64,000 bases of DNA from an uncultured bacterium (GCA_938003925.1 CALKWQ010000023.1:82885-146884); one strand, 5' to 3'. Shown: positions 875-34,430, counted from the first letter of the stretch. The notes: generated by a model not told the origin, from the sequence alone. A program made the numbers and translations.

Positions 875-878
875 ATTT

Positions 879-1346: not shown

Positions 1347-1357
1347 TCATTAACGCC

Positions 1358-2035
1358 ATGACCGGATTTATCTTTAAATCATTGGCCACAGAAGTAAGGG
1401 CGGGAGAAAAGTTAAAGGCAGCACGTTTGGAAAAAAATGTTCCCCTAGAAGACGTGGCCAAAAAATTGCATATCCGCAGTGATTATCTCCAAGCCTTGGA
1501 AAATGAAGAATACAGCCTTTTGCCGGCCGGCCTCTACGGACGCCAATTTTTAAAGGAATACTGCCAATATTTACACCTAGATCTAAAGCAAGTTTTACCC
1601 CTTACCCCGTTTGCGGATACAAAAGAAGAAAGTAATCCCTTTTCCCAAAAAATTCTTAGAAGCTGGCGTTTTCTGGTCTTTCCCAAAATTATCCGTAACA
1701 CTGTTTTTATCTTATTATTCTGTGTTTGTCTGCTTTATCTCTTAATTTACTTCCGCCGCTTAATCTCGCCGCCTAATTTAGAAGTGACATATCCCGAACG
1801 TAATTTAGTAATTAACGAAGCGCTCATCGAAGTACGCGGACAAAGTGACCCGGAAACAGAAGTTCAGATTAATAATACCGTTATTATGAGCTCTCAGGAT
1901 GGGAGTTTTATACAGGAGGTAAAACTAAAACAAGGCTTGAATAACCTAACTATTAGTGCTAAAAAGAAATATGGCCGAGAAAGCGTCATTCAGCGCCAAA
2001 TCTTGGTCGAAGACAAATATGAGCAGCCCCAATAA
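1358..2035 (+). CDS. RodZ-like membrane-anchored helix-turn-helix protein
   Basis: N-terminal XRE-type HTH (LKAARLEKNVPLEDVAKKLHIRSDYLQALE), a single TM helix, and an extracellular beta-rich tail. Confidence 0.5.
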   Translation: MTGFIFKSLATEVRAGEKLKAARLEKNVPLEDVAKKLHIRSDYLQALENEEYSLLPAGLYGRQFLKEYCQYLHLDLKQVLPLTPFADTKEESNPFSQKILRSWRFLVFPKIIRNTVFILLFCVCLLYLLIYFRRLISPPNLEVTYPERNLVINEALIEVRGQSDPETEVQINNTVIMSSQDGSFIQEVKLKQGLNNLTISAKKKYGRESVIQRQILVEDKYEQPQ

Positions 2036-2570
2036 AACCTTGCTATTTGACATAAATTTTATTTTAAATAAAATAGCACTAGGAGAAGGACAAAAGGTAG
2101 CCGAGTTAGGTTGTGGAAATTTTGGTTATTTTGTTTTTCCGGCCGCTAGATTAGTGGGTGCACGTGGTCGAATTTTTGCAGTTGATATCCTTAAAAACAC
2201 CTTGGAAGATATTAAAAAAAGAGCTCTACAGGATAACCTGCAACAGGTAGAAACCGTGTGGAGTAACTTAGAGATATTTAAAGGCACTAAAATCGAAAAT
2301 GCTAGTTTGGATAGTGTTTTATTAATTAATATTCTGCATCAGTCTGAAAAAAGAGCGGAAATTATACGTGAAGCGGTTAGAATGCTTAAAAATGGAGGTA
2401 AAATGCTAATTGTAGAGTGGAAGGGTATTGCTAGCCCCTTGGGACCCAAAACAGAAAAGAGAGTTAATAAAGAATCCCTAAAAGAAGCGGCCCCAAAATT
2501 AGGTTTATCATTAAACACTGAATTTGAGGCCGGCCCTTATCATTACGGCTTAATATTTCATAAATCATAA
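2019..2570 (+). CDS. class I SAM-dependent methyltransferase
   Basis: SAM motif I VAELGCGNFGYF. I prefer the ATG at 2019 (overlaps the upstream stop by 17 nt) to the track start at 1956, which lies inside the previous gene. Confidence 0.6.
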   Translation: MSSPNKTLLFDINFILNKIALGEGQKVAELGCGNFGYFVFPAARLVGARGRIFAVDILKNTLEDIKKRALQDNLQQVETVWSNLEIFKGTKIENASLDSVLLINILHQSEKRAEIIREAVRMLKNGGKMLIVEWKGIASPLGPKTEKRVNKESLKEAAPKLGLSLNTEFEAGPYHYGLIFHKS

Positions 2571-2574
2571 AACT

Positions 2575-2958
2575 ATGCAAAATTTACTGACCTGGCGCTT
2601 CTGGTTCAACTTACGCCCCGAACCCTTGCTGCCATTATTTACTAAGATCTTTATAGCTTGGCTCGTATTATTATTAATATTAACCATCTTTACCGCCATC
2701 AAACAGCATCGCAAAAGCCTATATAAACATTTTTGGAAAAAATCATACGCCTTCGCTGTGGGCAATTTAATTATTGGCGCGGTTTTATTTTTCTTTAGTT
2801 ATGAACGAGCCGCCTTTCTCTCCGCTCGTTTCTGGCTAGCCTTATGGTTAATCACTATGCTCTGGTGGCTGTGGCCAATTATCAAGAGCTATCGCCTAAT
2901 CCCCCTAAAAAAGAAACAGCGCGAACAGGAACAAGAATTCAAAAAATATCTGCCTTAA
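2575..2958 (+). CDS. small membrane protein, unknown function
   Basis: Four predicted TM helices and a basic C-terminus. Followed by a terminator. Confidence 0.4.
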   Translation: MQNLLTWRFWFNLRPEPLLPLFTKIFIAWLVLLLILTIFTAIKQHRKSLYKHFWKKSYAFAVGNLIIGAVLFFFSYERAAFLSARFWLALWLITMLWWLWPIIKSYRLIPLKKKQREQEQEFKKYLP

Positions 2959-2961
2959 AAT

Positions 2962-2991
2962 AAAAACCCATCTGGAAACGGATGGGTTTTT
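2962..2991 (+). terminator. intrinsic terminator
   Basis: AAAAACCCATC-loop-GATGGGTTTTT hairpin with a T run. Confidence 0.7.
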
Positions 2992-3067
2992 AGTTATATA
3001 TCTACCTCCTTAACTTTAATTTTCTACTTATAAGCTAAAAACAAAGATATAAAAAATGTTTAACACT

Positions 3068-4657
3068 CTATCGGCGCTCATAAATTAGGCTTAATTTATC
3101 ACTGAAAACTAGCTGCCATTCGGGGTTAGAGTCTAAATAAAGACGTAGCTTGTCTGAGGTTGATAAATCGTTGTCGCTAATTTGAAAAAAGAATTTTTCC
3201 CAAGCCTGGAGTGATAAACTTTTATTCTCCGCACGTAATAAAACTAAACGGATATTGTAACTGTCTAAAACCTTACCGGGATCAGTCGTTGCCGATCTCA
3301 AGACAAAATATTCTTCTAGTACAGTATGCTGACCGAATGTGGCCTGTGGCATGCGCCCGTCAATAAACACTTGTTTTTCTGGATAAGACCATAATAAGAA
3401 ACCACCCCAAGCGTATTCATTAAACAGGCGCCAGTCTTTGGTTTCCGGACGAGATTTTAAATAATCTAAGGCCGCACAAGGATACTTAATGTCACAAAAA
3501 TCTCTGATGTTGTCTTGACGCCAAGGTAAGCGCCAAAACAGTGTCACGAGCGATACCGTTAATAAAAAAACTAGCAAACTAATAACTATCTTCTTGAATA
3601 AAAGATTTATTTGCCATTTAAATTCAACTAGAGCCTGCTGTAAAATACCAGTTACTAGCGGCAATGAAGCTATAACAAAAATAGGAAAGTGTCGACGAGA
3701 TTGTAGAGACAGAACAAAGAAAACCGCCACTAGGCCGGCATCCCACCAAGAAATAAAGAGGCGGCGTGAACGCTGTTGCCAATAAAGTATAAAAATAGCA
3801 GCACTAAATGACAGATATAATATTTGTGGATAATATAAAGGAAAAACAAACTGTCCTCGCCACTCGGCAATATACTTCATATAAACAGTATTTGAATATC
3901 CCTCTAAAAAAGCATATAAACCCAGACCGTAAGGATTAACTAAAGTAGCTAACAAAGACAAGCCAAATATTATTATTAACTGAAATTTATCTTTAGTAGT
4001 AAAAGTGGGACAAGTGGCAAATTTATTAAATGGGTAGCGATGTAACCAAGGGGAGAGAAAAGTATACACCACATAAGCAGCCAATAAAACTAGGCCCAGC
4101 AAAAAACTACCATGGGCATTGGCCCACACCATAAACAATAACGGCAGGAACCATAACCAACGACGGTACTTAAAGTTGTTAGACAAAAATAAAAATAAGA
4201 GAGATAAAGCTAACAAACCAAAAGTCTGTACCCTAATCCCCAGATGTGGTTGACTAGACCAAAGGCCTGCTAACGCTAATAGCCAAAATAAAAATTTATG
4301 GCCGTCTGGACCTCCAAAAAGATCGAGCCAGCGCCGCCAGGTTAAAAATAGGGCGATTAAAGTTATGACTAGGAAGAATAAGTGCAAACTAATAAAGCCA
4401 CCGGAGTTAAAAATGGCCGTCATGGCTAAATTTAATAACCACTCATGATCTAGCCATTTTACGTCTGCAAAAGCATAATTATAATAATTAAGATGGGGCG
4501 CCTGGGCGTCGTTAATAATGTCTTGGCCGACACGTAAATGCCAGCCTAAATCAACATCTGAATACGACAAAGAATTAGCTAGCAACAACCAAGCTAAAAT
4601 CAAGGCTAACAGGATTGGTAAAACCGCTCTTGACAGTTTATATAGTTTATTACTCAT
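3068..4657 (-). CDS. large polytopic membrane protein, possibly a GT-C-type glycosyltransferase
   Basis: 529 aa with at least 12 TM helices, an acidic motif in the first loop (YSDVDLGWH) and a soluble C-terminal domain. The function is only a guess. Confidence 0.4.
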   Translation of the reverse strand: MSNKLYKLSRAVLPILLALILAWLLLANSLSYSDVDLGWHLRVGQDIINDAQAPHLNYYNYAFADVKWLDHEWLLNLAMTAIFNSGGFISLHLFFLVITLIALFLTWRRWLDLFGGPDGHKFLFWLLALAGLWSSQPHLGIRVQTFGLLALSLLFLFLSNNFKYRRWLWFLPLLFMVWANAHGSFLLGLVLLAAYVVYTFLSPWLHRYPFNKFATCPTFTTKDKFQLIIIFGLSLLATLVNPYGLGLYAFLEGYSNTVYMKYIAEWRGQFVFPLYYPQILYLSFSAAIFILYWQQRSRRLFISWWDAGLVAVFFVLSLQSRRHFPIFVIASLPLVTGILQQALVEFKWQINLLFKKIVISLLVFLLTVSLVTLFWRLPWRQDNIRDFCDIKYPCAALDYLKSRPETKDWRLFNEYAWGGFLLWSYPEKQVFIDGRMPQATFGQHTVLEEYFVLRSATTDPGKVLDSYNIRLVLLRAENKSLSLQAWEKFFFQISDNDLSTSDKLRLYLDSNPEWQLVFSDKLSLIYERR

Positions 4658-4705
4658 ATTTTTATTCTAACACACCCCTAATTGTTTGTCTTCTACGCTT
4701 GATTG

Positions 4706-4714
4706 TGGTAAAAT
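4706..4714 (+). promoter_or_regulatory. extended -10 promoter element (TGgTAAAAT) for the first pilin gene
   Basis: TGGTAAAAT lies about 45 nt upstream of the ATG at 4759. A strong SD (GAGAGGTGG) lies at 4742-4750. Confidence 0.35.
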
Positions 4715-4758
4715 AAAAACATCATTTAAATTATCAACAACTAGAGAGGTGGTGAATT

Positions 4759-5127
4759 ATGAATAAAAAAATCGTAAAAAACTTATTAGCTTTCGGCATC
4801 TTAGCTGTCTTAGCTGTACCCGCTGTGGCTTTAGCGCAAATCGATGTCGGCTTAAATGAAATTGACAACGAAATTTCTTTAGGCAACACCGATCCTAGAA
4901 CTACCGTGGCTAGATTAATCAACTTCGCTATGCTCTTCTTGGGTATTATCGCAGTGGTTATTATCTTAGCTGGTGGCTTTAAATGGATGACCGCCGGCGG
5001 TAACGAGGACAAAGTTGGAGAAGCCCAGAAGCTTATGAGTGCTGGTGTAATCGGCTTAGTTATCGTTCTATCTGCTTGGGGTATCGCCAACTTCGTCTTA
5101 AGTCGTTTGCTAACCGCAACCTCTTAA
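4759..5127 (+). CDS. VirB2/TrbC-like small pilin, paralog 1
   Basis: Signal peptide ending ALAQ. Motif FKWMTAGGNEDKVGEAQKLMSAGVIGLVIVLSAW between two TM helices. Confidence 0.65.
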   Translation: MNKKIVKNLLAFGILAVLAVPAVALAQIDVGLNEIDNEISLGNTDPRTTVARLINFAMLFLGIIAVVIILAGGFKWMTAGGNEDKVGEAQKLMSAGVIGLVIVLSAWGIANFVLSRLLTATS

Positions 5128-5252
5128 TACCTTTCTAGAATCGATTTTGGAAAAGTGCGGCCCTTGTGTAAACAGGGGCCACCGCCCTGGATATCAGTAA
5201 TTACTGGTGTACAGAGCGGTATCTGTGTAGAAACCAAATCAATTATAAAATT

Positions 5253-5651
5253 ATGCTTTGCTCTAAAATAGCTAGAAGCGTATCCTTTTTTATCTTAACT
5301 AGCCTGCTGACAGCTGGTTTTTTTAGTATCGCCCCTACAGCTTCGGCAGACGATGATTACGGGCTAACGACCAGCGCTGGTAAAGTTAGCGCCTTCTCTA
5401 ATCAAATAGCTAATTATAATGACAATTTCTTAAGCACTCGTGCAGGTGTGATTATTGGCATAATTTTATCATTTGTCGGAGTTATCTTTTTAGTGCTCAT
5501 GATTTATGCTGGCTTAATGTGGATGACAGCCCAAGGCAATCAAGAAAGAGTAAACAAAGCGAAAGACCTAATGATTAATGCGGTTATTGGTTTAATCATC
5601 GTCATGGCTGCTTATGCTATTACTTCTTTTGTCGGCCAAAGATTAACTTAA
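5253..5651 (+). CDS. VirB2/TrbC-like small pilin, paralog 2
   Basis: LMWMTAQGNQERVNKAKDLMINAVIGLIIVMAAY; signal peptide; two TM helices. Confidence 0.65.
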   Translation: MLCSKIARSVSFFILTSLLTAGFFSIAPTASADDDYGLTTSAGKVSAFSNQIANYNDNFLSTRAGVIIGIILSFVGVIFLVLMIYAGLMWMTAQGNQERVNKAKDLMINAVIGLIIVMAAYAITSFVGQRLT

Positions 5652-5658
5652 TATTTCT

Positions 5659-6045
5659 ATGACCTTGCGCAAGCTGATTATTAGCACCTTCATGATGTTT
5701 GCCTTAATCTTTCCCATGAGTGGTGTCTTTGCTCAAACCTATAATTTTAACCAGAACAGTGGCCTTAACCATACCAGCAACACTGCCGGTTTTAATAGCA
5801 CTGACACCAGTCTAGAAAGATATATTACCATTATTATTAATATTATTCTTTCTTTATTGGGTGTAGTGTTTTTAGGTTTAATGATTTACGGCGGCATCGT
5901 GTGGATGACCGCTCAAGGCAATGAAGATAAGGTAAAAAAAGCCAAAGAGTTAATTACAGAAGCTGTTATTGGTTTAATTATTGTACTAGCTGCTTACGCT
6001 ATTACCTACTTTGTCCTTAAGTTAACTAGCGGCTCCTTGGTTTAA
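5659..6045 (+). CDS. VirB2/TrbC-like small pilin, paralog 3
   Basis: IVWMTAQGNEDKVKKAKELITEAVIGLIIVLAAY. 7-nt gap to the previous gene. Confidence 0.65.
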   Translation: MTLRKLIISTFMMFALIFPMSGVFAQTYNFNQNSGLNHTSNTAGFNSTDTSLERYITIIINIILSLLGVVFLGLMIYGGIVWMTAQGNEDKVKKAKELITEAVIGLIIVLAAYAITYFVLKLTSGSLV

Positions 6046-6054
6046 AAAATAAAA

Positions 6055-6444
6055 ATGACTAAAAATACTAAAAACCAATCTATTTTCTGGTCCACCTTAT
6101 CAATACTGTCTTTATTGCCAACAACAGCCTGGGCGGCCAACCTTCAGGATGCTTTTAAAAATGATAATTCTCCTCTAAAGGTGGCGGCTATCGGTGGTGG
6201 CATTTATCGTGAAGGCGTTATGCTAGAATCCATAGCCGGACAAATTATCACTGGCATTTTCTCTTTTTTGGGTATTATTTTTGTTGCTTTTACCATCTAT
6301 GGCGGCTTTCTCTACATGAATGCGCGTGGTAATGAGGAACAAACAAAAAAGGCCACCTCTATTATTACCCAAGCTTTAATCGGCTTAGTAATAATCTTAG
6401 CCGCCTACGCCATCACTTATTTTATTTTTAAATTCTTTGTCTAA
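6055..6444 (+). CDS. VirB2/TrbC-like small pilin, paralog 4
   Basis: FLYMNARGNEEQTKKATSIITQALIGLVIILAAY. Confidence 0.65.
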   Translation: MTKNTKNQSIFWSTLSILSLLPTTAWAANLQDAFKNDNSPLKVAAIGGGIYREGVMLESIAGQIITGIFSFLGIIFVAFTIYGGFLYMNARGNEEQTKKATSIITQALIGLVIILAAYAITYFIFKFFV

Positions 6445-6453
6445 TCATCTAGT

Positions 6454-6888
6454 ATGAAATTCAAAAACTTCAAGCCAGTAGCCACTCTTTTCGTTCTTAC
6501 TTTAGTGATGATTTTGCCTTATTTTGTGTTCGCCCAAGAAGCGCAAACCAACGGACAAGTCATTAACACTACCGGCCCCGCCAATCCCATCAACATGTTA
6601 CAAAATGTAGCCACCGGCAACAGCGGTCCTTATGGCTCTACCGATGAAAACACTTTGCCGACCATTTTGGGCTATATAATTAATGGCGCTTTAAGTTTAT
6701 TAGGTATCATCTTTATCGTCCTAATGGTCTTAGCTGGCTATAACTGGATGATGGCTTCCGGTAATGAGCAAAGAGTAGAAGAGGCTAAAGATACGATTAA
6801 ACGCGCTATCATTGGTCTAGTAATTGTCTTGGGATCATGGGCTATTTGGAACTTTATCTTATCCAATATCATTGAAAGACTAAAATAA
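6454..6888 (+). CDS. VirB2/TrbC-like small pilin, paralog 5
   Basis: YNWMMASGNEQRVEEAKDTIKRAIIGLVIVLGSW. Confidence 0.65.
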   Translation: MKFKNFKPVATLFVLTLVMILPYFVFAQEAQTNGQVINTTGPANPINMLQNVATGNSGPYGSTDENTLPTILGYIINGALSLLGIIFIVLMVLAGYNWMMASGNEQRVEEAKDTIKRAIIGLVIVLGSWAIWNFILSNIIERLK

Positions 6889-22533: not shown

Positions 22534-22561
22534 TGTGGATAGCCTTTTTATCCCCTATAAT
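22534..22561 (+). promoter_or_regulatory. inverted pair of DnaA-box-like 9-mers abutting a TATAAT -10 upstream of dnaA
   Basis: TGTGGATAG (22534-22542, 8/9 to TGTGGATAA), TTATCCCCT (22548-22556, 7/9) and TATAAT (22556-22561). Confidence 0.5.
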
Positions 22562-22582
22562 AAAAGCATATATATTTACCTT

Positions 22583-23974
22583 ATGAATAATGAACAAATT
22601 TGGCAAGCGACTTTAGGAGAGTTAGAAATTAATTTATCTAGAGTTAATTTTGTTACTTGGTTTAAAGATACTTTTTTAGCTTCTTTTGAAAATGGGCGCG
22701 CTATTGTTTGTGTTCCTAATGCTTTTGTAAAAAAGTGGTTAGAAGAAAAATACCACAAGAACATTGTTAACTCTTTAGAAAATATTACGAAACAAAAATT
22801 ACAAGAGATTATCTATAAAATTGAATTACATCGTCCTGAAAAATCTAATTATGCCCAAAATCCAACAACAGAAAATATACCCCAAACAAACGTACAAGCT
22901 GAAGCAACCATTAAACCCTCAACCAACACCAATACTACTAACCGCTTTGGTCTAAACCCAAAATATGTATTTGAGAACTTTGTGGTTGGGCGTGGTAATG
23001 AATTAGCGCACGCAGCTTGTCGAGCGGTAGTTAATAATCTCGGCAAGGCTTATAACCCCCTCTTCATATATGGTGGCGTTGGTTTAGGAAAAACCCACCT
23101 ACTCCAAGCCATTGGTAACGAAGTGGCAAAGCATAACGATAAAATACTATATACCACCAGTGAAAAATTCACCAACAACTATATTCAGGCAGTGCAAACA
23201 GGTAAAGCTAAAGATTTTAAAAACATGTACCGCAATGTTGATTTACTTTTGGTTGATGATGTGCAGTTTATGGGCGGGAAAGATGGCACACAAGAAGAAT
23301 TTTTTCATACTTTTAACGAGCTTCAGCAGGGAGACAAGCAAATTGTTATGACTTCAGATCGTCCCCCAAAATCTATTCCCGCTATTGAAAAAAGGTTAAT
23401 TTCTCGTTTTGAATCAGGCATGGTGGCTGATGTGGGTAAACCAGACGTAGAAACAAAGATAGCAATTTTAGAAAAAAAATCTCTAGAAAAAAGTTTTCCC
23501 TTAGATAAAGATGTTTTAATTTATATAGCTAATAATGTCCAAAACAATATTCGTGAGTTAGAGGGTGCCCTAAATAAAGTGGTGGTAATCCATCAATTAA
23601 ATAATTCCGTCCCAACTCTTAAAAGTGTAAAAAATGCTCTTAGCGATTATGTTTCTAGTTTGCAGGTTAAATCTTTGAGTCCTAAGGATATTATTGAAGC
23701 TGTGGCCAGATTTTATGATGTTAATATTAAGGATTTAATTGGTAATAGCCGTCGTAAAGAATTGGTTGGCCCCAGACAGGCCGCTATTTATTTGATAAGA
23801 GAGGAGCTTAACACCTCTTATCCCAGTATCGGCCAAGAAATGGGTGGCCGCGATCACACCACCGCCATGCACGCCTACAATAAAATTCTAAACGAGATTA
23901 AGGAGAATGAAAATGAAAAGCTAAAACAAGAGCTGGAGTCTATCAAACAATTATTTACAAGCTCCCCGTATTAA
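22583..23974 (+). CDS. dnaA: chromosomal replication initiator DnaA
   Basis: Walker A GGVGLGKTHL, LLVDDVQF, the AAA+ sensor and the C-terminal DNA-binding RDHTTAMHA. The track GTG at 22535 lies inside a DnaA box, so I use the ATG at 22583. Confidence 0.93.
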   Translation: MNNEQIWQATLGELEINLSRVNFVTWFKDTFLASFENGRAIVCVPNAFVKKWLEEKYHKNIVNSLENITKQKLQEIIYKIELHRPEKSNYAQNPTTENIPQTNVQAEATIKPSTNTNTTNRFGLNPKYVFENFVVGRGNELAHAACRAVVNNLGKAYNPLFIYGGVGLGKTHLLQAIGNEVAKHNDKILYTTSEKFTNNYIQAVQTGKAKDFKNMYRNVDLLLVDDVQFMGGKDGTQEEFFHTFNELQQGDKQIVMTSDRPPKSIPAIEKRLISRFESGMVADVGKPDVETKIAILEKKSLEKSFPLDKDVLIYIANNVQNNIRELEGALNKVVVIHQLNNSVPTLKSVKNALSDYVSSLQVKSLSPKDIIEAVARFYDVNIKDLIGNSRRKELVGPRQAAIYLIREELNTSYPSIGQEMGGRDHTTAMHAYNKILNEIKENENEKLKQELESIKQLFTSSPY

Positions 23975-24236
23975 TGTGGAAGATGTGTGTATAAATTACA
24001 AAAAACTGATGATAACCATGTGATTAAACGACTAATAATAAGTTCAGAAAACGGACTATTAACACAACCCCATTCAATATTAACAAAACAATCTTGTGGT
24101 TTGCCCCGTTAATTAATAGTTTAAAACACAGGCAAATATATTTAATAATAGCTAATAAAAAGCTTAAAAAATTTTTCTCCACAAGCATTATTATTACTAT
24201 TATTAAAATATATATAAATTATATAATATAATAAAT
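23975..24236. other. putative oriC (dnaA-dnaN intergenic region: DnaA-box-like 9-mers plus an AT-only unwinding stretch)
   Basis: TGTGGAAGA 23975-23983, TGTGTATAA 23986-23994 (8/9), TGTGGTTTG 24095-24103, TTCTCCACA 24175-24183 (8/9). 24187-24236 consists of A and T only. Confidence 0.6.
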
Positions 24237-25358
24237 ATGAAGTTTATATGTTTGCAAGATAATTTAAAAAAGGGGTTGGCTCTGGTTAGTCATATAAATA
24301 ATAAGAATATAAACTTACCGATTTTAAATAATATTCTATTTAAAGCAAATGATGGCGGAGTAGAGTTGATTAGCACCAATTTAGAGATAGGTATCACCCA
24401 CCAACTTCGTGGCAAGGTAGAGGAAATTGGAGAATTTACGGTTGATGCTAAAATTATCAGTGATTATGCCAACCTACTACCAGAAGAAAAGGTTGAGCTT
24501 AAAGAAGTTGACAGTGAAATATCTTTAAAGTGTGGTAATTATAAGACCAAAATAAAAGGAGAGTCTTCTAAGGAGTTTCCACTGATACCCGTTATAGATC
24601 GCGGTAATTTCTGTGAGTTTAATATTTTTGATTTTAAAAAGGCTTTAAGTAGTGTTGCTTTTGCGGTTGCTAATAATGACAACCGCCTGGAGTTGTCTGG
24701 TGTCTCTTTTATTTTTAGTGATAATATTTTAACCCTAGCTGCTACTGATAGTTATCGTTTGGCTGAGAGAAAGATTGTGATTAAGGGTGGTAATATTAAC
24801 AACAGTCAACTAATTGTGCCGTCTCGCACCATCCAGGAAGTTTTAAGAATAATTTCAAATTTCAGCGCCGATGCTCAAACTATTGAATCTGATATTGTTA
24901 AGATTTATGTTTCCGATAATCAAATTTTATTCTCTTTAGATTCGGTGGAAATTATATCGCGCTTAATTAGTGGTCAATACCCCGATTACAGACAAATTAT
25001 TCCAGATAAGTATAAAACTGAAGTGGTTTTGAGAAGGCAGGATTTAATTAGGGCTATTAAAGCCTCGTCCATTTTTTCTAAAACTGGTATTTATGATATT
25101 TCTCTGGTTTTAAAAAAGTCTTTGGTTAATGTTTATTCCTCTTCCGGCCAGAGTGGTGAGAGCTCTATTGATTTAAGCGCTGAAGTTAATGGGGATGATA
25201 ATGATATTACTATTAATTATCGTTATCTTTTGGATGGTTTGAATATTATTGAAAGCGAGCTTGTTAATTTAAGAGTAATTAATAACAACACTCCTTGCGC
25301 TCTATCTTCCCCAGAAGATGAAAACTATCTCTATATAGTAATGCCTATTAGAAATTAG
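24237..25358 (+). CDS. dnaN: DNA polymerase III beta sliding clamp
   Basis: 373 aa; LTLAATDSYRLAE and SGQYPDYRQIIP motifs; located after dnaA. Confidence 0.9.
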   Translation: MKFICLQDNLKKGLALVSHINNKNINLPILNNILFKANDGGVELISTNLEIGITHQLRGKVEEIGEFTVDAKIISDYANLLPEEKVELKEVDSEISLKCGNYKTKIKGESSKEFPLIPVIDRGNFCEFNIFDFKKALSSVAFAVANNDNRLELSGVSFIFSDNILTLAATDSYRLAERKIVIKGGNINNSQLIVPSRTIQEVLRIISNFSADAQTIESDIVKIYVSDNQILFSLDSVEIISRLISGQYPDYRQIIPDKYKTEVVLRRQDLIRAIKASSIFSKTGIYDISLVLKKSLVNVYSSSGQSGESSIDLSAEVNGDDNDITINYRYLLDGLNIIESELVNLRVINNNTPCALSSPEDENYLYIVMPIRN

Positions 25359-29826: not shown

Positions 29827-29898
29827 GCGCCCATAGTTCAACGGATAGAACACCAGCCTTCTAAGCTGGATACGTAGGTTCGATTCCTACTGGGCGTA
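29827..29898 (+). tRNA. tRNA-Arg (anticodon UCU)
   Basis: Acceptor GCGCCCA/TGGGCGT, anticodon stem CCAGC/GCTGG, loop CTTCTAA. Confidence 0.8.
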
Positions 29899-29929
29899 CT
29901 TGTTAGAGAATATTAATCAATTATTATAT

Positions 29930-30118
29930 ATGGAAAATAAGAAGAAAGCGGCCGTTTCCGCTTTAAAAAAGACGATGGCCACAGCTATTAAGCCTAAGGT
30001 AGTTAAGAAAGCTCCGGTAGCTAAGAAAAAAACCAGAGAAGAAATTGAAGAGATGTTTGCTTTCAGTTTTGGTTGCGATTGTAGCTCTTGCGGTCATCAT
30101 TGTGGCGATCACAAGTAG
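29930..30118 (+). CDS. small Lys-rich protein with a C-terminal Cys/His cluster (possible metal-binding peptide)
   Basis: MENKKKAAVSALKK...KKKTREEIEEMFAFSFGCDCSSCGHHCGDHK. The track TTG at 29900 starts 1 nt after the tRNA, so I prefer the ATG at 29930. Confidence 0.4.
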   Translation: MENKKKAAVSALKKTMATAIKPKVVKKAPVAKKKTREEIEEMFAFSFGCDCSSCGHHCGDHK

Positions 30119-30141: not shown

Positions 30142-30213
30142 GGTGCCTATGGTGTAGTGGTAACACAGCAGGTTGTGGTCCTGTTATTTCGGGTTCGATT
30201 CCCGATAGGCACC
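30142..30213 (+). tRNA. tRNA-His (anticodon GUG) with encoded G-1 and C73
   Basis: G-1, acceptor GTGCCTA/TAGGCAC, D stem GTGT/ACAC, anticodon stem GCAGG/CCTGT, loop TTGTGGT. Confidence 0.85.
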
Positions 30214-30230
30214 CCCAAAGGGAATGTATA

Positions 30231-30264
30231 AAAATAACTCTAATATTAGAGTTATTTTTATTTT
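30231..30264 (+). terminator. type-A hairpin/terminator (left end of cassette 1)
   Basis: AAAATAACTCTA-ATAT-TAGAGTTATTTT followed by a T run. Near-identical copy at 31550-31584. Confidence 0.75.
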
Positions 30265-30299
30265 AGACTAGCTAGACCCCTAACGGGAAGACAAACTAA

Positions 30300-30328
30300 T
30301 TGACAGAAGATGATAAAGGTTATATAAA
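30300..30328 (+). promoter_or_regulatory. cassette 1 promoter (TTGACA-17-TATAAA)
   Basis: Read directly. Homologous promoter at 31619-31647. Confidence 0.55.
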
Positions 30329-30372
30329 TATATAAAATTAATTTTCGCAGTAGTAACTTAAAATCAATAATC

Positions 30373-30762
30373 ATGAAAAAAATTGCGGTAATCATAGATT
30401 CTAAATCTATAAGATTGTCTCTCGGTAAACTATTGAAGTGGAGGGGTTTTGATGTTTTCTTTTTTGAGAGCGAAAAGGATACAAAAGAACAGATTAAGCA
30501 TATCGATGTTCTTATTATTGATCCTTTTATACCCACTGAGTATTTAAACAACCCTAATTTTCCAGTAAGTCGAGGGTATGAAGCTGGCGTGTATTTAATA
30601 AAAGAATGTCAGAAAATTAATCCGGGGCTTGATGTGTTGATATATTCATCAATTTCTGTAGAAGGCATAAAACTAGCTGGATTATCGGAACTTATTGCAA
30701 AAAAAAGCATGATTATGCCGGAAAAATTTGAAGACATATTAGAAAGGATTACGACGGGCTAA
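30373..30762 (+). CDS. stand-alone CheY-like receiver domain protein (divergent)
   Basis: IAVIIDS near the N-terminus, DVLIIDPFIP (phospho-acceptor Asp position), and a beta-alpha alternation of receiver length (129 aa). Confidence 0.45.
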   Translation: MKKIAVIIDSKSIRLSLGKLLKWRGFDVFFFESEKDTKEQIKHIDVLIIDPFIPTEYLNNPNFPVSRGYEAGVYLIKECQKINPGLDVLIYSSISVEGIKLAGLSELIAKKSMIMPEKFEDILERITTG

Positions 30763-30777
30763 GTAACTCAAAAAGCT

Positions 30778-30810
30778 AAAGCCTGTGATTTTACATCGCA
30801 GGCTTTTTTA
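30778..30810 (+). terminator. intrinsic terminator of the cassette 1 gene
   Basis: GCCTGTGAT-TTTAC-ATCGCAGGC followed by TTTTTT. Confidence 0.75.
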
Positions 30811-30815
30811 TATCA

Positions 30816-30869
30816 ATTTACCAAATATTCCATCAAAACAGTTTTCCAAGTTTTGCGTTTAGCCACCCC
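30816..30869 (+). repeat. 54-nt junction repeat R, copy a
   Basis: ATTTACCAAATATTCCATCAAAACAGTTTTCCAAGTTTTGCGTTTAGCCACCCC. The last 10 nt match the tRNA-His 3' end at 9/10. Confidence 0.9.
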
Positions 30870-30875
30870 AGTTGG

Positions 30876-30903
30876 AAAAGACGAGTCTAAAAGCTCGTTT
30901 TTC
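30876..30903 (+). terminator. type-B hairpin/terminator (left end of cassette 2)
   Basis: ACGAG-TCTAAAAG-CTCGT followed by TTTTT. Copy at 32100-32128. Confidence 0.55.
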
Positions 30904-30954
30904 TGTTATATAATGGCAAAAATATGGTTTGCGAGAATTGACAATCTGAATTAA

Positions 30955-30983
30955 TTGACAAAAGACAATTAATATGATATACT
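30955..30983 (+). promoter_or_regulatory. cassette 2 promoter (TTGACA-17-TATACT)
   Basis: Read directly. A second TTGACA lies at 30938. Confidence 0.55.
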
Positions 30984-31092
30984 CTTATGTTATATAGTTC
31001 ATTCACAAGAAATAATAAGGTTAATTATCAAGTTTATTATAATTAGTAGATTTAACAATTAATCTTATTATTTAACATAAATATAAATAAAA

Positions 31093-31251
31093 ATGGAATT
31101 ATCATTAATTATCCTGGCAAACATAAGCTCAGGGTTTACTTTGTATTTTGCTATCAAAAAGCAAACCAAAAAAACATGGATTGCTTGGACTTTTACAGTC
31201 GTCTTTATCCTGGCTGTATTAGGACTACAAACACTTGGACTGCGATGGTAA
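31093..31251 (+). CDS. 52-aa two-TM membrane peptide (below the track cutoff)
   Basis: My translation: MELSLIILANISSGFTLYFAIKKQTKKTWIAWTFTVVFILAVLGLQTLGLRW. Promoter upstream and terminator downstream. Confidence 0.45.
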   Translation: MELSLIILANISSGFTLYFAIKKQTKKTWIAWTFTVVFILAVLGLQTLGLRW

Positions 31252-31276
31252 ATTTAATGACCTCCTCCCCGCACTC

Positions 31277-31306
31277 AAAAAGCTATCCTAATCGGATAGC
31301 TTTTTT
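31277..31306 (+). terminator. intrinsic terminator
   Basis: AGCTATCC-TAATC-GGATAGCT followed by TTTTTT. Confidence 0.75.
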
Positions 31307-31440
31307 CATACGGGGTTTCCTTTCGGGTCACGCTTCGCGTTAAGGCCTCCGCAATACTACGGGCGTCATTCATCCCCGCACTCGCGCTCCCGCTTCGCGG
31401 TTCGCCAATGAATACTCGTGCGGGGTTTCCTGACTATTTA
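31307..31440. other. GC-rich island with interleaved direct and inverted repeats (candidate structured RNA or recombination scar)
   Basis: CCCCGCACTC twice (31267, 31374), CGGGGTTTCCT twice (31311, 31421), CGCTTCGCG twice (31331, 31391). GTGCGGGG (31418) is complementary to both CCCCGCAC copies. Confidence 0.4.
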
Positions 31441-31447
31441 AAAACAC

Positions 31448-31480
31448 GTCCTGAATATTAAATTAATTCAGGACTTTTTA
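31448..31480. terminator. intrinsic terminator preceding R copy b
   Basis: GTCCTGAAT-loop-ATTCAGGAC followed by TTTTT. Confidence 0.7.
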
Positions 31481-31534
31481 ATTTACCAAATAATCTATCA
31501 AAAAAGTTTTCCAAGTTTTGCACTTAGCCACCCC
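31481..31534 (+). repeat. 54-nt junction repeat R, copy b
   Basis: 5 differences from copy a over 54 nt. Ends in TTAGCCACCCC. Confidence 0.9.
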
Positions 31535-31549
31535 TAAAGGGAATGTATG

Positions 31550-31584
31550 AAAATAACTCTAATATTAGAGTTATTTTTATTTTA
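31550..31584 (+). terminator. type-A hairpin/terminator (left end of cassette 3)
   Basis: Same hairpin as 30231-30264. Confidence 0.75.
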
Positions 31585-31618
31585 GACTAGCTAAACCACC
31601 AATGGGAAGACAAACTAA

Positions 31619-31647
31619 TTGACAAAATTAAATCAATGTGTTATAGT
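31619..31647 (+). promoter_or_regulatory. cassette 3 promoter (TTGACA-17-TATAGT)
   Basis: Read directly. Confidence 0.55.
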
Positions 31648-31741
31648 GTTTTGTTACACAGTTCATTTACAAATAACAATTAGGTTAATTATCAAGTTTA
31701 TTATAATTAATAGATTTAATAATTAACCTAAATTAGTAATA

Positions 31742-31981
31742 ATGGAAACACAAGAAAAAAAAGCCGATGGCATTGGCCCAGGCACGGCAGTAATCATTTT
31801 TATTGGGTTGGTTATTTGGGGTTCGATAGAATCCAAATATATGCCCTTGAAAGGGTTTAGATCGCTTTTCGATAACACCTGGATGTTAATCGAAGAAGTG
31901 TTTCTCCCGGCACTGCTGATCTCAATAATAGCGGGAATTTTTATTTCCCTGGCGGCCCACCTGATATACAGGGAGTTATAA
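31742..31981 (+). CDS. 79-aa two-TM membrane protein, unknown function
   Basis: Track ORF with two hydrophobic helices. Preceded by the shared leader and followed by a terminator. Confidence 0.5.
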   Translation: METQEKKADGIGPGTAVIIFIGLVIWGSIESKYMPLKGFRSLFDNTWMLIEEVFLPALLISIIAGIFISLAAHLIYREL

Positions 31982-32005
31982 TTTTTACTGCTAAAAGTTT
32001 TTGTT

Positions 32006-32034
32006 AAAGGAGCTAAGAAATTAGCTCTTTTTTA
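32006..32034 (+). terminator. intrinsic terminator of the cassette 3 gene
   Basis: GAGCTAA-GAAA-TTAGCTC followed by TTTTTT. Confidence 0.7.
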
Positions 32035-32039
32035 TATCA

Positions 32040-32093
32040 ATTTACCAAACATTCAATCAAAATAGTTTTCCAAGTTTTGTAGTTAGTTACCCC
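32040..32093 (+). repeat. 54-nt junction repeat R, copy c
   Basis: 8 differences from copy a. Ends in TTAGTTACCCC. Confidence 0.9.
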
Positions 32094-32099
32094 AGCTGG

Positions 32100-32128
32100 A
32101 AAAGACGAGTCTAAAAGCTCGTTTTTTT
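32100..32128 (+). terminator. type-B hairpin/terminator (left end of cassette 4)
   Basis: Same hairpin as 30876-30903. Confidence 0.55.
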
Positions 32129-32202
32129 GTTATATAAGAGAGAAAATATGGTTTGCCAAAATAATTTATTGACATTTTTAGATGATTTGTTAAAGTATAA
32201 TC

Positions 32203-32313
32203 CTTCCAATCAGTGTAGGATAAAACCGAACAACGAGGCGCAAGTGGGCGCCTACAAGAGTTTAAAAAACTTAGAGACTGATTGCCATAGAGATCTTAAT
32301 TGATCTCTTTTTA
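32203..32313 (+). ncRNA. candidate small RNA (promoter-to-terminator unit); the alternative reading is a 51-aa ORF at 32148-32303
   Basis: TTGACA at 32169 with TAAAGT/TATAAT 16-21 nt later. Outer stem CAATCAG (32207) / CTGATTG (32278) encloses the GC hairpin AGGCGC-AAGTGG-GCGCCT (32236-32253). Terminator AGAGATC-TTAATT-GATCTCT followed by TTTTT (32289-32313). Confidence 0.3.
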
Positions 32314-32319
32314 TTTATT

Positions 32320-32373
32320 TAAAATCAAATACTCCATCAAAATAGTTTTCCAAGTTTTGCGATTAGCCGCCCA
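32320..32373 (+). repeat. 54-nt junction repeat R, copy d (most diverged)
   Basis: The core ATCAAAATAGTTTTCCAAGTTTTGCGATTAGCCGCCC is conserved and the 5' part has diverged. Confidence 0.8.
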
Positions 32374-32378
32374 TCAAG

Positions 32379-32407
32379 AATAACCCAATTTTAAAGGGTT
32401 ATTTTTA
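32379..32407 (+). terminator. type-C hairpin/terminator after R copy d (possibly the ancestral tRNA-His terminator)
   Basis: AATAACCC-loop-GGGTTATT followed by TTTT. Confidence 0.65.
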
Positions 32408-32472
32408 TTAGTATTAATATAGTTTATATCTTTTTTGTGGATGGGGTATAATGAAGGTGTAAATAGTAAAAT

Positions 32473-32838
32473 ATGAATAAATCAATATATAAAAAATTTT
32501 TAGTCTTATGTTTTTTAATTTGTGTTTTGTTTTTTTGGGGGGCTGTATTAAGTCCAGATTTTAACATAAGGAAAGGCGTTGCGCTTATTATTTTAGACAT
32601 GAGCAAAGAGGAGTTGGCCAAAACGTATGAGAAAGATAATACTTTTTGCTTGATTGATAGCGACTGCGTCATCCAGGAGGACTGTTATTGCTGTACTGGC
32701 AATATGGCTGTAAATAAGTATAATTATAAGAATGTTGGTTGTGATAAAAATAGAGCAATCTGTGAAGCTATTTGTCCTCCTCAAGAATTATCGTGTGCAC
32801 ACAATATATGTGTTTTGAAAGATTTAACCCATTACTAA
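32473..32838 (+). CDS. small secreted Cys-rich protein (12 Cys in the C-terminal 75 aa)
   Basis: N-terminal hydrophobic signal/anchor followed by CLIDSDCVIQEDCYCCTG...CDKNRAICEAICPPQELSCAHNIC. Confidence 0.5.
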   Translation: MNKSIYKKFLVLCFLICVLFFWGAVLSPDFNIRKGVALIILDMSKEELAKTYEKDNTFCLIDSDCVIQEDCYCCTGNMAVNKYNYKNVGCDKNRAICEAICPPQELSCAHNICVLKDLTHY

Positions 32839-32870
32839 TTTTTAGATAAATCATATTTCTAGATCAATTT

Positions 32871-33431
32871 ATGATTAGATTAAATACGGATAACGATTAT
32901 CAAATCAGAAAAATAACGCCAGACGATATTTTGGCTCTGCACAAAATATATTTTTTAGCTTGGTTGGACACCTATCCTAATGATGAATTTCATATCACAA
33001 AAGAGGATATTATTTATAAATATGAGCAAAGACTGACTCCGGAAAAAATCCAGGAAGGTAAAGAGAAGATTTTGCGCACAACAGAAAATGAACTCAAATT
33101 GCTTTTAGAGTATAAGGGAGAAATTGTGGCTCTTTGTAATGTGGTCAAAGAACAGGAATATAATCAGCTTCAGGCTATCTATGTCTTGCCCGAATATCAA
33201 GGTTTAGGACTGGGACCAGCTCTTTGGTTTGAGGCCAAGAAATTTTTAGATGCAAATAAAAACACCATCGTTCACGTAGCTTCATATAATAATCGGGCTA
33301 TTAGATTTTACGAAAAACTGGGATTTATAAGTACAGATAAGGTTTTTAGTGATGAAAAATTTAAAATGCGAAATGGTGCTATTATTCCAGAACTAGAAAT
33401 GATAAGGCCGGCTGAAAATAGACTACATTAA
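32871..33431 (+). CDS. GNAT-family N-acetyltransferase
   Basis: Acetyl-CoA motif A: QAIYVLPEYQGLGLGPALW ... NNRAIRFYEKLGF. Confidence 0.8.
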   Translation: MIRLNTDNDYQIRKITPDDILALHKIYFLAWLDTYPNDEFHITKEDIIYKYEQRLTPEKIQEGKEKILRTTENELKLLLEYKGEIVALCNVVKEQEYNQLQAIYVLPEYQGLGLGPALWFEAKKFLDANKNTIVHVASYNNRAIRFYEKLGFISTDKVFSDEKFKMRNGAIIPELEMIRPAENRLH

Positions 33432-33581: not shown

Positions 33582-34430
33582 ATGTGTGCAAAAAAATCTT
33601 ATAATCTCGGCGGACAAAAGGAATTATTAACCATATACGAGTCCGACCAAGCCCTTAGTTTGGAGCAAGTTGAAGATTTAGAGGGTCCAGTTAATCCGGA
33701 TAAAAAACTGGAGCTGCCAGACCTGTCTAAGGTGCGGGAGGTTTTACGTGAGTCCGGTTGGGAATTGATTGGTGATCGAGAATCATGTAGCGGTGGCGCC
33801 TTTGGCCCAATTTTTAAGTTAAAAGTTCGAGAGATGACTAGTGGTAAAGAGCTGTTTTTAATGGAAAGAACCTTTACAGAGATGCAAGATATTGAGCGCC
33901 GTTTTGGTTTGGTGGAAATAGAATCTGTTCCTTCCAGTCATAATAATCTTGATTCAGAGCCTAGGTACGAATTAATTAATCAGTCAGATCACCACCAAGA
34001 TAAATTAATTATAGACTATCTTTATAATGAGGCTAGAGCCCTAAAAGAGTTACAAGCAGTTAAGGGTGTACCCAAATTTTACGGGGCGGTTTATGATGAC
34101 CTTAACGGTTCAATCCTAACTGAATTTATTGATGGCCCTGATTTAAGCATGATTGTTTTACGAGGCAAACAGGCAATTATTGAATGGAATGTGCCGGAGC
34201 TATTAGAGAAGGTTAAAAAAATTTATACCGCTGCCGCTGAGGCTGGATTTATTCACCATAATCCAGTTGGAGCTACTATCATGATTGGCCCAGATCGTGA
34301 ACCTTATTTGGCAGACTGGTATCTCTATGCTCAAGGCAGGATTGATGCTGAGAGCCCCATTAGAGATAAGTATTTACAAGGATTACGCGACATCGAAGAA
34401 TTTGAAAAGATGCTACTAACAGCAGAGTAA
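33582..34430 (+). CDS. divergent protein-kinase-like fold protein (catalytic loop HHN instead of HRD)
   Basis: Gly-rich loop SGGAFGPIFKLKV, alpha-C Glu in EARALKEL, hinge LTEFIDGPDL, catalytic-loop position FIHHNPVGATIM, and DFG position LADW. Confidence 0.45.
   Translation: MCAKKSYNLGGQKELLTIYESDQALSLEQVEDLEGPVNPDKKLELPDLSKVREVLRESGWELIGDRESCSGGAFGPIFKLKVREMTSGKELFLMERTFTEMQDIERRFGLVEIESVPSSHNNLDSEPRYELINQSDHHQDKLIIDYLYNEARALKELQAVKGVPKFYGAVYDDLNGSILTEFIDGPDLSMIVLRGKQAIIEWNVPELLEKVKKIYTAAAEAGFIHHNPVGATIMIGPDREPYLADWYLYAQGRIDAESPIRDKYLQGLRDIEEFEKMLLTAE

Follow-up and report, generated by a model that had tools for sequence, protein, structure and literature searches.

A putative integration island at the 3' end of tRNA-His, probably built from large serine recombinase elements of Patescibacteria

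The 64,000-nt stretch of DNA analyzed in this work (GCA_938003925.1 CALKWQ010000023.1:82885-146884, from an uncultured bacterium; hereinafter the window, with positions counted from its first letter) harbors, after a tRNA-His(GTG) gene, four units (cassettes 1 to 4), each closed by a 55-nt repeat that we call R. The locus probably represents an island of integrated DNA at the tRNA-His 3' end, derived from a family of integrative elements of Patescibacteria that encode a large serine recombinase (LSR). An initial annotation of this region had recognized in it the footprint of site-specific insertion at a tRNA 3' end. This idea is in agreement with the finding that the same left ends follow both tRNA-His and R, that the strains L078 and L079 diverge at a sharp breakpoint at this position, and that in relatives an LSR gene lies at the very same junction. 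The window holds derivatives of LSR elements and not a complete element; indeed, it shares its ends with the full-length elements and possesses their specific target, whereas the recombinase gene is missing. The segments concerned are the following:

30142-30217, plus strand: tRNA-His(GTG) (ARAGORN, Rfam), 3' end ..GATAGGCACCCCCA
30218-30305, plus strand: type-A left end of cassette 1, with a palindromic terminator (30228-30261) and the block GGGAAGACAAACTAATTGACA (30285-30305), which holds the -35 box
30815-30869, plus strand: R1, right-end attachment repeat; its antisense strand encodes ..GVAKRKTWKTVLMEYLVN and a stop codon (30813-30815)
30870-30945, minus strand: type-B left end of cassette 2, a frameshifted LSR 3'-end pseudogene remnant (about aa 462-486)
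31480-31534, plus strand: R2 (repeat family search)
31535-31624, plus strand: type-A left end of cassette 3, with a hairpin (31547-31580) and the promoter block (31604-31624)
32039-32093, plus strand: R3 (repeat family search)
32094-32165, minus strand: type-B left end of cassette 4, a hairpin-bearing remnant of the LSR 3' end
32319-32373, plus strand: R4 (repeat family search)

The four copies of R (55 nt each, starting at 30815, 31480, 32039, and 32319) do close the four segments that the initial annotation had delimited after tRNA-His; they are spaced by 665, 559, and 280 nt, and the later copies share 80-91% identity with the first. In the whole 64 kb there are exactly four occurrences of the 16-mer AGTTTTCCAAGTTTTG, every one inside R, against 0.18 expected by shuffling (0 of 100 shuffles reach four). 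The tRNA-like terminus TAGCCACCCC that had been ascribed to R as a whole holds for R1 and R2 and not for R3 and R4, which end in TAGTTACCCC and TAGCCGCCCA, respectively. R is conserved in its sequence and not in its structure (51 distinct copies) and has no terminal inverted repeats. Folding against shuffles revealed no hairpin beyond chance in three of the four plus-strand copies, and four of six R folds (three of the four copies on the plus strand) gave single-stranded DNA z values between -0.5 and +0.6. A search of the region in Rfam, with both gathering and E-value thresholds, returned only tRNAs and tmRNA; neither R nor the left ends nor the payload RNAs gave a match.

Promoter and hairpin scans, together with direct reading, revealed the same layout in the units, that is, terminator, promoter, one payload, terminator, and R; this order, as previously proposed, is supported by near-consensus promoters and by an excess of hairpins (seven in the terminator scan vs. 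1.8 expected). The promoter-like sites are TTGACA-17-TATAAA at 30300 in cassette 1 (taken straight from the sequence, the others coming from the scan), TTGACA-17-TATACT at 30955 in cassette 2, TTGACA-17-TATAGT at 31619 in cassette 3, and TTGACA-16-TAAAGT at 32169 in cassette 4. The alternation of two types of left end was also right, the type-A pair (30206-30326 vs. 31525-31645) being 87% identical and the type-B pair (within 30803-30938 and 32027-32162) 88% identical; a bidirectional hairpin (30877-30902) lies inside the type-B left end of cassette 2. Missing from the earlier description is the homology between the promoters and palindromic leaders of cassettes 2 and 3 (30949-31065 vs. 31613-31729, 83% identical). 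Several small membrane-protein cassettes, unrelated to one another, have a leader made of this same conserved combination, a promoter plus a long, imperfect, AT-rich palindrome (AGGTTAATTATCAAGTTTATTA/TAGTAGATTTAACAATTAATCTT; window 30949-31073 and 31613-31731; L006 4961-5120; L011 2268-2408; L038 10869-11006; L079 after tRNA-His), which may represent an operator or an RNA switch.

Arrays of this kind exist in other Patescibacteria. A 20-base R pattern scanned against one genome per species retrieved 22 loci, 15 of which carry true R copies and belong to metagenome-assembled genomes (MAGs) of Patescibacteria; the other seven, in unrelated phyla, are chance matches, as is the single match to R in viral contigs, which falls within a phage coding sequence. 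A metagenome scan added about 22 further true R loci, and a profile search revealed arrays of 1 to 7 R copies; overall, R is present in about 30 Patescibacteria contigs besides the window. The genes for tRNA-Arg(TCT) and tRNA-His(GTG) lie just upstream, on the R strand, in every locus reaching far enough; tRNA-His is immediately upstream in 17 distinct R-bearing contigs, in all nine fetched loci of the LSR homologues described below, and in L028, which starts with a partial tRNA-His. Among the loci examined, no R unlinked from tRNA-His could be demonstrated. A scattering of R over the whole genome, which the initial annotation had regarded as contrary to its own reading, was not seen, the copies of the 64-kb window being confined to the array and those of the relatives being linked to tRNA-His. 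The segments between R copies are 0.28-1.2 kb long and contain one plus-strand open reading frame (ORF) each, unrelated from one segment to another; in relatives these ORFs code for GNAT, methyltransferase, SET-like, and HNH proteins and for membrane peptides, among others. R and the next left end are 85-96% identical between genomes, whereas the flanking genes are only about 72-76% identical.

The analysis of the sequences following tRNA-His and R revealed that the roughly 100 nt after the tRNA-His end (..TAGGCACCCCA) belong to the same families as those after R (..TTAGCCACCCCA). Type A consists of a palindromic hairpin and then CCCCTAACGGGAAGACAAACTAATTGACA; type B of AAAAGACGAGTCTAAAAGCTCGTTTTT and then ..GGTTTGCC; type D of another hairpin and a promoter block as in type A. 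These families also follow a third, further copy of the tRNA-His end, and a unique terminator stands behind the final R of an array. In all loci the A/D promoter block is found only 65-69 nt past a tRNA-His or R end and only on that strand, the exceptions lying solely beside decayed repeats. Since the left-end families are common to both, tRNA-His and R are interchangeable left partners of the cassettes, and this interchangeability is a stronger argument than the 9/10 match between the ends of R and tRNA-His put forward by the initial annotation.

The recombinase that might be responsible for these junctions was found in relatives. L028 carries, beyond tRNA-His and a type-B end, an ORF of about 500 codons on the antisense strand. 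Its domains PF00239, PF07508, and PF13408 (resolvase, recombinase, and zinc ribbon) identify it as an LSR; its sequence matches in the PDB are only to catalytic domains, that of a resolvase-family recombinase and that of the TP901-1 integrase. In ten loci (L028, L052-54, and L058-63) an LSR gene directly abuts tRNA-His in antisense orientation, and the dnaA-dnaN-PBP-SpoU-tRNA neighborhood of the window is also found in L052, L054, and L061. R is placed at the far end of the element (at 9.9 kb in L028, 9.7 kb in L054, 10 kb in L061, and 7.4 kb in L058-60), and in some of the LSR loci additional mini-cassettes follow beyond it. Besides the LSR, the core of the element encodes an AAA_25 ATPase, a second serine recombinase (247-266 aa, no zinc ribbon), and small ORFs, one of them with an HTH_17 domain and a candidate excisionase; the shorter recombinase is present in every LSR element with enough sequence beyond the LSR gene. 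The cargo is variable and comprises restriction-modification genes, DUF2326/MC6/SMEK genes, and NYN. The initial statement that no recombinase accompanies the units therefore stands for the 64-kb window and fails for its relatives. No tyrosine recombinase linked to the arrays was found, either in the window or in the arrays of other loci, the sole Phage_integrase gene seen (L062) being located outside the element, on the far side of the tRNAs.

The integrated LSR frame has no stop codon before the tRNA: 21 of 33 LSR homologue sequences (40-90% identity) read past GV into GN(RT...) or ENRT..., which is the antisense translation of the T-arm and acceptor of the tRNA. The L028 LSR, used as a tblastn query, matches the window at 30858-30931 and the type-B ends of 15 other loci, over residues of about 462-486; the type-B ends of the window correspond to the last ~25 codons of the LSR gene, frameshifted. 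Sixteen of 18 distinct R/B junctions read ..NELLDSSFPNGVAKRKTWKTFLMEYLVN in the LSR frame, with the stop codon at the 5' edge of R. This frame is open in 46 of 51 distinct R copies, the other two frames being open in 0 and 1 copies. In the same set of 51 copies, which are not phylogenetically independent, synonymous changes make up a fraction of 0.33 (0.20 expected), the ratio of synonymous to non-synonymous changes reaches 16:1 and 14:1 at two Leu codons, and the stop codon is kept 15:3. The frame open through both the type-B end and R indicates that R represents the last 18 codons and the stop codon of the LSR gene once the element ends are joined, so that integration splits the gene; this also accounts for the length of R and for its sharp 5' boundary. 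The right boundary of type B, GGTTTGCCA, is the antisense of the W-Q-T codons of the LSR; as it lies 17-18 nt upstream of a TATAAT box in several cassettes, it might double as the -35 box of the cassette gene.

A related locus, L035, seems to have been caught midway through its decay, with 96 LSR codons retained. The stretch from tRNA-His to its only R is occupied by a 6.5-kb block of restriction/defence type (130-6685), whose genes code, among others, for a DUF262/HNH protein and for a protein resembling N6 adenine methyltransferases; the LSR is reduced to the 96-codon stub.

The tRNA-like end of R belongs to the element. It stays TTAGCCACCCC, with the consensus (T/A)AGCCACCC and scattered substitutions only, in hosts whose tRNA-His genes end in GGCACC (L054), GGGCACC (L061 and L010), or GCTACC (L009 and L006), and it coincides with the tRNA-His terminus found in L035, L058, and L062. 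Since it is independent of the tRNA variant of the host, the idea that R is a displaced host tRNA end was discarded, and with it the initial proposal that each insertion leaves behind a partial copy of the tRNA end. The tRNA-His of the window ends in CACCCCCA (30210-30217), with one C more than its relatives (CACCCCA); this extra base offsets the encoded CCA, and the 3' ends given by ARAGORN and Rfam consequently disagree.

The following scenario can be proposed. The chromosomal attachment target is the 3' end of tRNA-His (..GATAGGCACCCCCA). A full-length element (7-10 kb) lies there, in related genomes, with its LSR gene antisense against the tRNA and with R at the opposite end; in the circular (attP) form the two ends would be joined and the LSR frame would run through the type-B end into R, R and the left end together being the equivalent of attP. 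The end of R is a 10-12-nt mimic of the acceptor/CCA end of tRNA-His and, because R mimics the target, every stacked unit would offer a further target-like end, making a tandem pile-up possible. The mini-cassettes have kept the left end, a promoter, one small payload, and R, and have lost the LSR; the units of the window are interpreted as such LSR-less derivatives because their type-B ends are frameshifted stubs. The type-B end is a remnant of the LSR 3' end and the type-A end a non-coding block of terminator and promoter. By analogy with the pseudo-SCC units (SCC, staphylococcal cassette chromosome) that depend on Ccr, the mini-cassettes most likely rely on an LSR supplied in trans, and the LSR of this clade would be the catalyst of the integration events. 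The crossover is inferred to occur in or just after CACCCC(A), a placement that derives from AGCCAC being element-borne and conserved. Modules may also have been shuffled by homologous recombination. The regular design of the units and their fixed boundaries speak in favor of their maintenance and dissemination as functional modules of one gene each. A further step would be to regard the locus as a serine-recombinase counterpart of integrons, in which single-gene cassettes are captured, stacked, and exchanged singly at tRNA-His by an LSR acting in trans; we put this forward tentatively, as something that falls a little short of an even chance.

The comparison of related strains, in which all the data come from MAG or metagenome assemblies, gave evidence of turnover at this site. 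Over the 9238 nt that end with the last base of tRNA-His, L078 and L079 share 99.95% identity, and from there on they are wholly different, the former continuing with a native-looking terminator and a GC-rich element and the latter with a type-D cassette; near-identical strains thus differ by the gain or loss of a cassette at the last base of tRNA-His. One cassette (X), 99.6% identical in L033 and L037, has different upstream neighbors in the two loci, following tRNA-His directly in L037 and two other cassettes in L033. Another (Y, with a 73-aa ORF) is found between four different pairs of neighbors at 84-87% identity, and its flanks show no other blastn similarity in the pairs L009/L034 and L009/L018. 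L010 and L011 have an upstream flank 92% identical and no array content in common, and in L081 and L082 the tRNAs are present and R is absent. L003 (4915-8000) and L037 (2961-6061) have in common a block, 97% identical, that begins about 230 nt upstream of tRNA-His and extends through the array; identity falls to 71-74% in the genes lying beyond it on the upstream side, which suggests a transfer or replacement of the block of tRNA and island as a whole. Independent assemblies of the strain of the window break at the type-A hairpins. Cassette 3 is identical in an independent assembly (L056) and 97.8% identical in L057; within a comparison limited to cassettes 3 and 4, the 97.8% identical strain has the same two cassettes.

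The GC-rich element mentioned above measures about 200 nt and stands behind a terminator, after tRNA-His or after the last R (L078 9238-9500; L018 about 1066-1290; L050 about 1975-2200; L024). Its hairpin shows compensatory changes between loci. Its last 17-19 nt copy the 3' end of tRNA-His (AATTCCCAGTAGGCACCC), in L078 without any difference from the tRNA-His of the host, and this copy too is followed by cassette left ends. No Rfam match was found for the L018/L050/L024 and L078 sequences. The element looks like a second, unrelated miniature insertion, or a noncoding RNA, at tRNA-His.

Several observations weigh against the interpretation of the locus as an island built by LSR elements. The MAG and metagenome assemblies on which every comparison relies break at repeats. 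No recombinase was detected in the 64-kb window, either by Pfam on 40 ORFs or by tblastn with both serine recombinases; neither a circular form nor an R-LSR junction was found among the 33 LSR homologue sequences or in viral contigs, and none of these homologues has the R-encoded tail. The LSR family is absent from viral contigs, in which scans with the LSR and with its alignment gave only serine integrases at 23-25% identity. No LSR-bearing element was seen with a type-A or type-D left end, so that the recombinase of these ends is assumed. Canonical LSRs recombine only attP with attB, and tandem accretion would need pseudo-attB sites. Lastly, one R copy (L033) with the tRNA-type G hints at a crossover further 5'. 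A non-conserved dyad likewise hints at a more 5' crossover: this 8-bp dyad (TTTTCCAA/TTGGAAAA), centred on TTAG, had been considered as the symmetry axis of attP and was rejected, since it is not conserved among type-B ends, its TTGG half lying in variable LSR codons between F and GV (consensus P-N).

Different hypotheses might account for the same arrangement. The cassettes might be immobile relics, left by full LSR elements that inserted serially and then lost the recombinase and most of the cargo by deletion; the presence of similar cassettes in different contexts would be due to homologous recombination (e.g., following natural transformation) involving R copies, left ends, and common leaders, and not to excision and integration of cassettes. 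This scenario fits the frameshifted LSR stubs at the type-B ends, the L035 intermediate, and the further decay visible in the window, where an R stub is fused to a GNAT gene; the modules are mosaic (cassettes 2 and 3 pair one leader with different left ends), and the 97% block of L003 and L037 within 74% flanks suggests homologous block replacement. However, the type-B end always stops at GGTTTGCCA and the distance of the A/D block from the junction is constantly 65-69 nt; deletions occurring independently and at random would not yield such fixed boundaries. The arrays reach up to seven regular one-gene units, the LSR frame is open in most R copies, and cassette Y is found, as a single unit, between four different pairs of neighbors; on balance we consider the relics scenario unlikely, albeit a serious contender. 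Still less probable, in our opinion, is that the LSR serves type-B cassettes only and that another recombinase (the 247-266-aa serine enzyme or an enzyme of the GC-rich element) moves those of types A and D. The A/D ends have just a CCCCTNNNGGGAA motif in common with the LSR 3' region and never stand beside the LSR, LSR elements with enough sequence do possess a second, shorter serine recombinase, and the host-matching tRNA-His copy of the GC-rich element in L078 is the classical signature of a different integration system. On the other hand, A/D cassettes end in the R that encodes the LSR tail, exactly as the LSR elements do, A and B units alternate within single arrays, and no further recombinase is consistently linked to them.

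Two other models can be set aside almost entirely. R might be a dispersed repeat of the REP (repetitive extragenic palindrome) or MITE (miniature inverted-repeat transposable element) type, or a conserved RNA motif of the 3' untranslated region, with no relation to recombination; its constant position between gene end and terminator, which implies transcription with the cassette, would fit. We rejected this possibility as very improbable: all four window copies are in the array, with none elsewhere in the 64 kb, the copies of other genomes are linked to tRNA-His, R has no terminal inverted repeats, no significant fold, and no Rfam family, and its conservation is explained by the antisense coding signature and by its position at the ends of LSR elements. 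An integron-like array with R as an attC-type site, folded as single-stranded DNA and used by a tyrosine integrase, is suggested by the single-ORF cassettes that share one orientation and each end in a repeat of about 55 nt, and is scarcely credible. Indeed, R forms no hairpin beyond chance and is conserved in sequence rather than in structure, which excludes an attC-like site; the cassettes own their promoters, no intI gene accompanies any array, and the recombinase at the junction is a serine enzyme.

The architecture had been said to match no described system, a statement that cannot be maintained, since tandem composite islands of serine recombinase elements with recombinase-less units are known from SCC at orfX (PMC6243372). 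In SCC, serine recombinases integrate at the 3' end of one origin-proximal gene (rlmH/orfX), direct repeats bound the units, and tandem composite islands as well as ccr-less pseudo-SCC units occur (PMC6243372). On the grounds of organization, the closest analogue of our locus is the SCC composite island with pseudo-SCC units. The putative LSR integration also takes place at the 3' end of one origin-proximal gene, the array being about 6 kb from dnaA/dnaN; tandem units are bounded by direct repeats of the target end, and some of them lack recombinase genes; the cargo includes restriction-modification and other accessory genes; and each element has two serine recombinases, as in ccrA/ccrB. At variance with SCC, the target is tRNA-His and not rlmH/orfX (nor is it the upstream SpoU-class methylase gene), the recombinase-less units are single-gene cassettes of 0.28-1.2 kb with terminator and promoter instead of multi-kb islands, the LSR gene would span attP and be split by integration, and the second recombinase is short and without zinc ribbon. 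Given these differences in target, unit size, and gene-spanning attachment site, the island does not belong to the SCC family. In the window, dnaA and dnaN are located at 22535-25358, about 5-8 kb upstream of the array, which places the island next to the replication origin region, like the SCC locus; in related loci an rpmH-rnpA-yidD-yidC cluster adjoins dnaA.

The locus also recalls integrons and CALINs (attC clusters without an integrase): both have one-gene cassettes in one orientation that end in recombination-site repeats, often with no integrase nearby. The initial annotation correctly set the units apart from integron cassettes because of their own promoters, and the comparison also fails on the type of recombinase (the tyrosine recombinase IntI vs. 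a serine enzyme), on the structure of the site (attC, a structure-conserved palindrome, vs. the sequence-conserved and unstructured R), and on the platform (attI and Pc with mostly promoterless cassettes vs. a tRNA 3' end and units with promoter and terminator). Tycheposons of Prochlorococcus and the accretion of cis-mobilizable elements (CIME) and integrative and conjugative elements (ICE) in streptococci involve tyrosine recombinases and kilobase units. They resemble the island in the repeated integration at tRNA 3' ends, in the tandem arrays with partial tRNA-like repeats, and in the recombinase-less cargo units that can be mobilized in cis or in trans, and differ from it in that here an LSR, an element-borne tRNA-like repeat of 10-12 nt, and miniature units are found. 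The tyrosine integrases of the Myxococcus phage Mx8 (intP) and of SSV-type archaeal viruses have genes that span attP. In these systems, too, the attachment site lies inside the recombinase frame and integration into a tRNA gene alters or splits the 3' end of the integrase gene; in our case only the last 18 codons would be displaced, and the integrated ORF reads into the antisense strand of tRNA-His. In the full-text literature we found no description of an LSR element or of a cassette array at tRNA-His in Patescibacteria.

The remaining features of the window are as follows:

29827-29899: tRNA-Arg(TCT) (ARAGORN, Rfam)
30373-30762, plus strand: payload of cassette 1, 129-aa ORF, family without assignment
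30778-30806, plus strand: terminator hairpin of cassette 1 (terminator scan)
30955-31251, plus strand: cassette 2, with promoter (30955-30983), AT-rich palindromic leader (31010-31073), and 52-aa membrane-peptide ORF (31093-31251)
31255-31479, plus strand: structured 3' region of cassette 2, with two ~108-nt units (CCCCGCAC...GGGGTTTCC) and a terminator (31443-31479)
31619-32033, plus strand: cassette 3, with promoter, leader (31680-31731), 79-aa membrane ORF (31742-31981), and terminator (32010-32033)
32169-32312, plus strand: cassette 4, with promoter (32169-32196), structured ~115-nt transcript, and terminator (32289-32308)
32374-33431, plus strand: probable decayed cassettes 5 and 6, with hairpin (32379-32407), promoter (32423-32452), and two ORFs
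32473-32838, plus strand: Cys-rich 121-aa ORF, whose counterpart in L010 is followed by R
~32860-32871, plus strand: R stub, the first R bases only, fused to the GNAT start codon
32871-33431, plus strand: GNAT ORF, Pfam-confirmed, found as an R-ending cassette in L020/L028

The payload of cassette 1 had been described as a receiver-domain protein, which is not demonstrable: the 129-aa ORF has no Pfam match at E<=0.01, and its best sequence match in the PDB is a CheY at E=0.23. The stretch 31255-31440 of cassette 2 has a GC content of 0.51, against about 0.3 nearby, and folds better than its shuffles (z = -5.8); its ~108-nt units can also be delimited as CCCCGCAC...CGGGGTTTCC, and no homologue among the fetched loci and no Rfam match was found for this GC-rich part. 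Cassette 4, as had been noted, is poor in ORFs, no convincing one being present in its ~115-nt transcript. Its payload (32198-32312; z = -3.5 for folding against shuffles) resembles a structured RNA, about 115 nt long and provided with a predicted promoter and terminator of its own; it has no Rfam match and, apart from the terminator, no homologue in other loci. PADLOC returned no match for the cassette proteins.

The array probably continues beyond R4 as two decayed cassettes, as judged from the Cys-rich and GNAT ORFs. The hairpin at 32379-32407, regarded by the initial annotation as a candidate for the native tRNA-His terminator, is probably not such, in that it resembles the left end of the decayed fifth cassette. 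Just past these remnants, a 282-aa ORF (33582-34430), found in the same position in L011, has a weak PADLOC match to PD-T4-6 (E = 1.3e-5) and no Pfam match; it may be a kinase-like accessory or defence gene. Between tRNA-Arg and tRNA-His, a 72-aa lysine-rich ORF (29900-30118) ends in a Cys/His cluster (CDCSSCGHHCGDHK) and corresponds to no Pfam family; in L010, L011, L006, L009, and L021 the two tRNA genes are likewise separated by about 200-650 nt.

Patescibacteria, or CPR (Candidate Phyla Radiation) bacteria, have tiny genomes whose gene gain and loss are little understood. The locus described here appears to be a widespread, dedicated, origin-adjacent site for the stacking of accessory genes, including those for membrane peptides, GNAT proteins, methyltransferases, restriction-modification and other conflict systems, and small RNAs. 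Even if the cassettes were only relics, the family would still offer the case of an LSR directed to the 3' end of a tRNA gene, with integration splitting the recombinase gene itself. A demonstration that single cassettes are mobilized would increase the interest of the system; if the LSR does move them, this would represent a second, mechanistically independent solution to the problem solved by integrons, and it would provide natural short attachment sites and a compact LSR for the genetic manipulation of organisms for which almost no tools exist. If the system is indeed a serine-recombinase counterpart of integrons, the island would be a compact, origin-proximal store of accessory and defence genes for the genome-reduced CPR bacteria.

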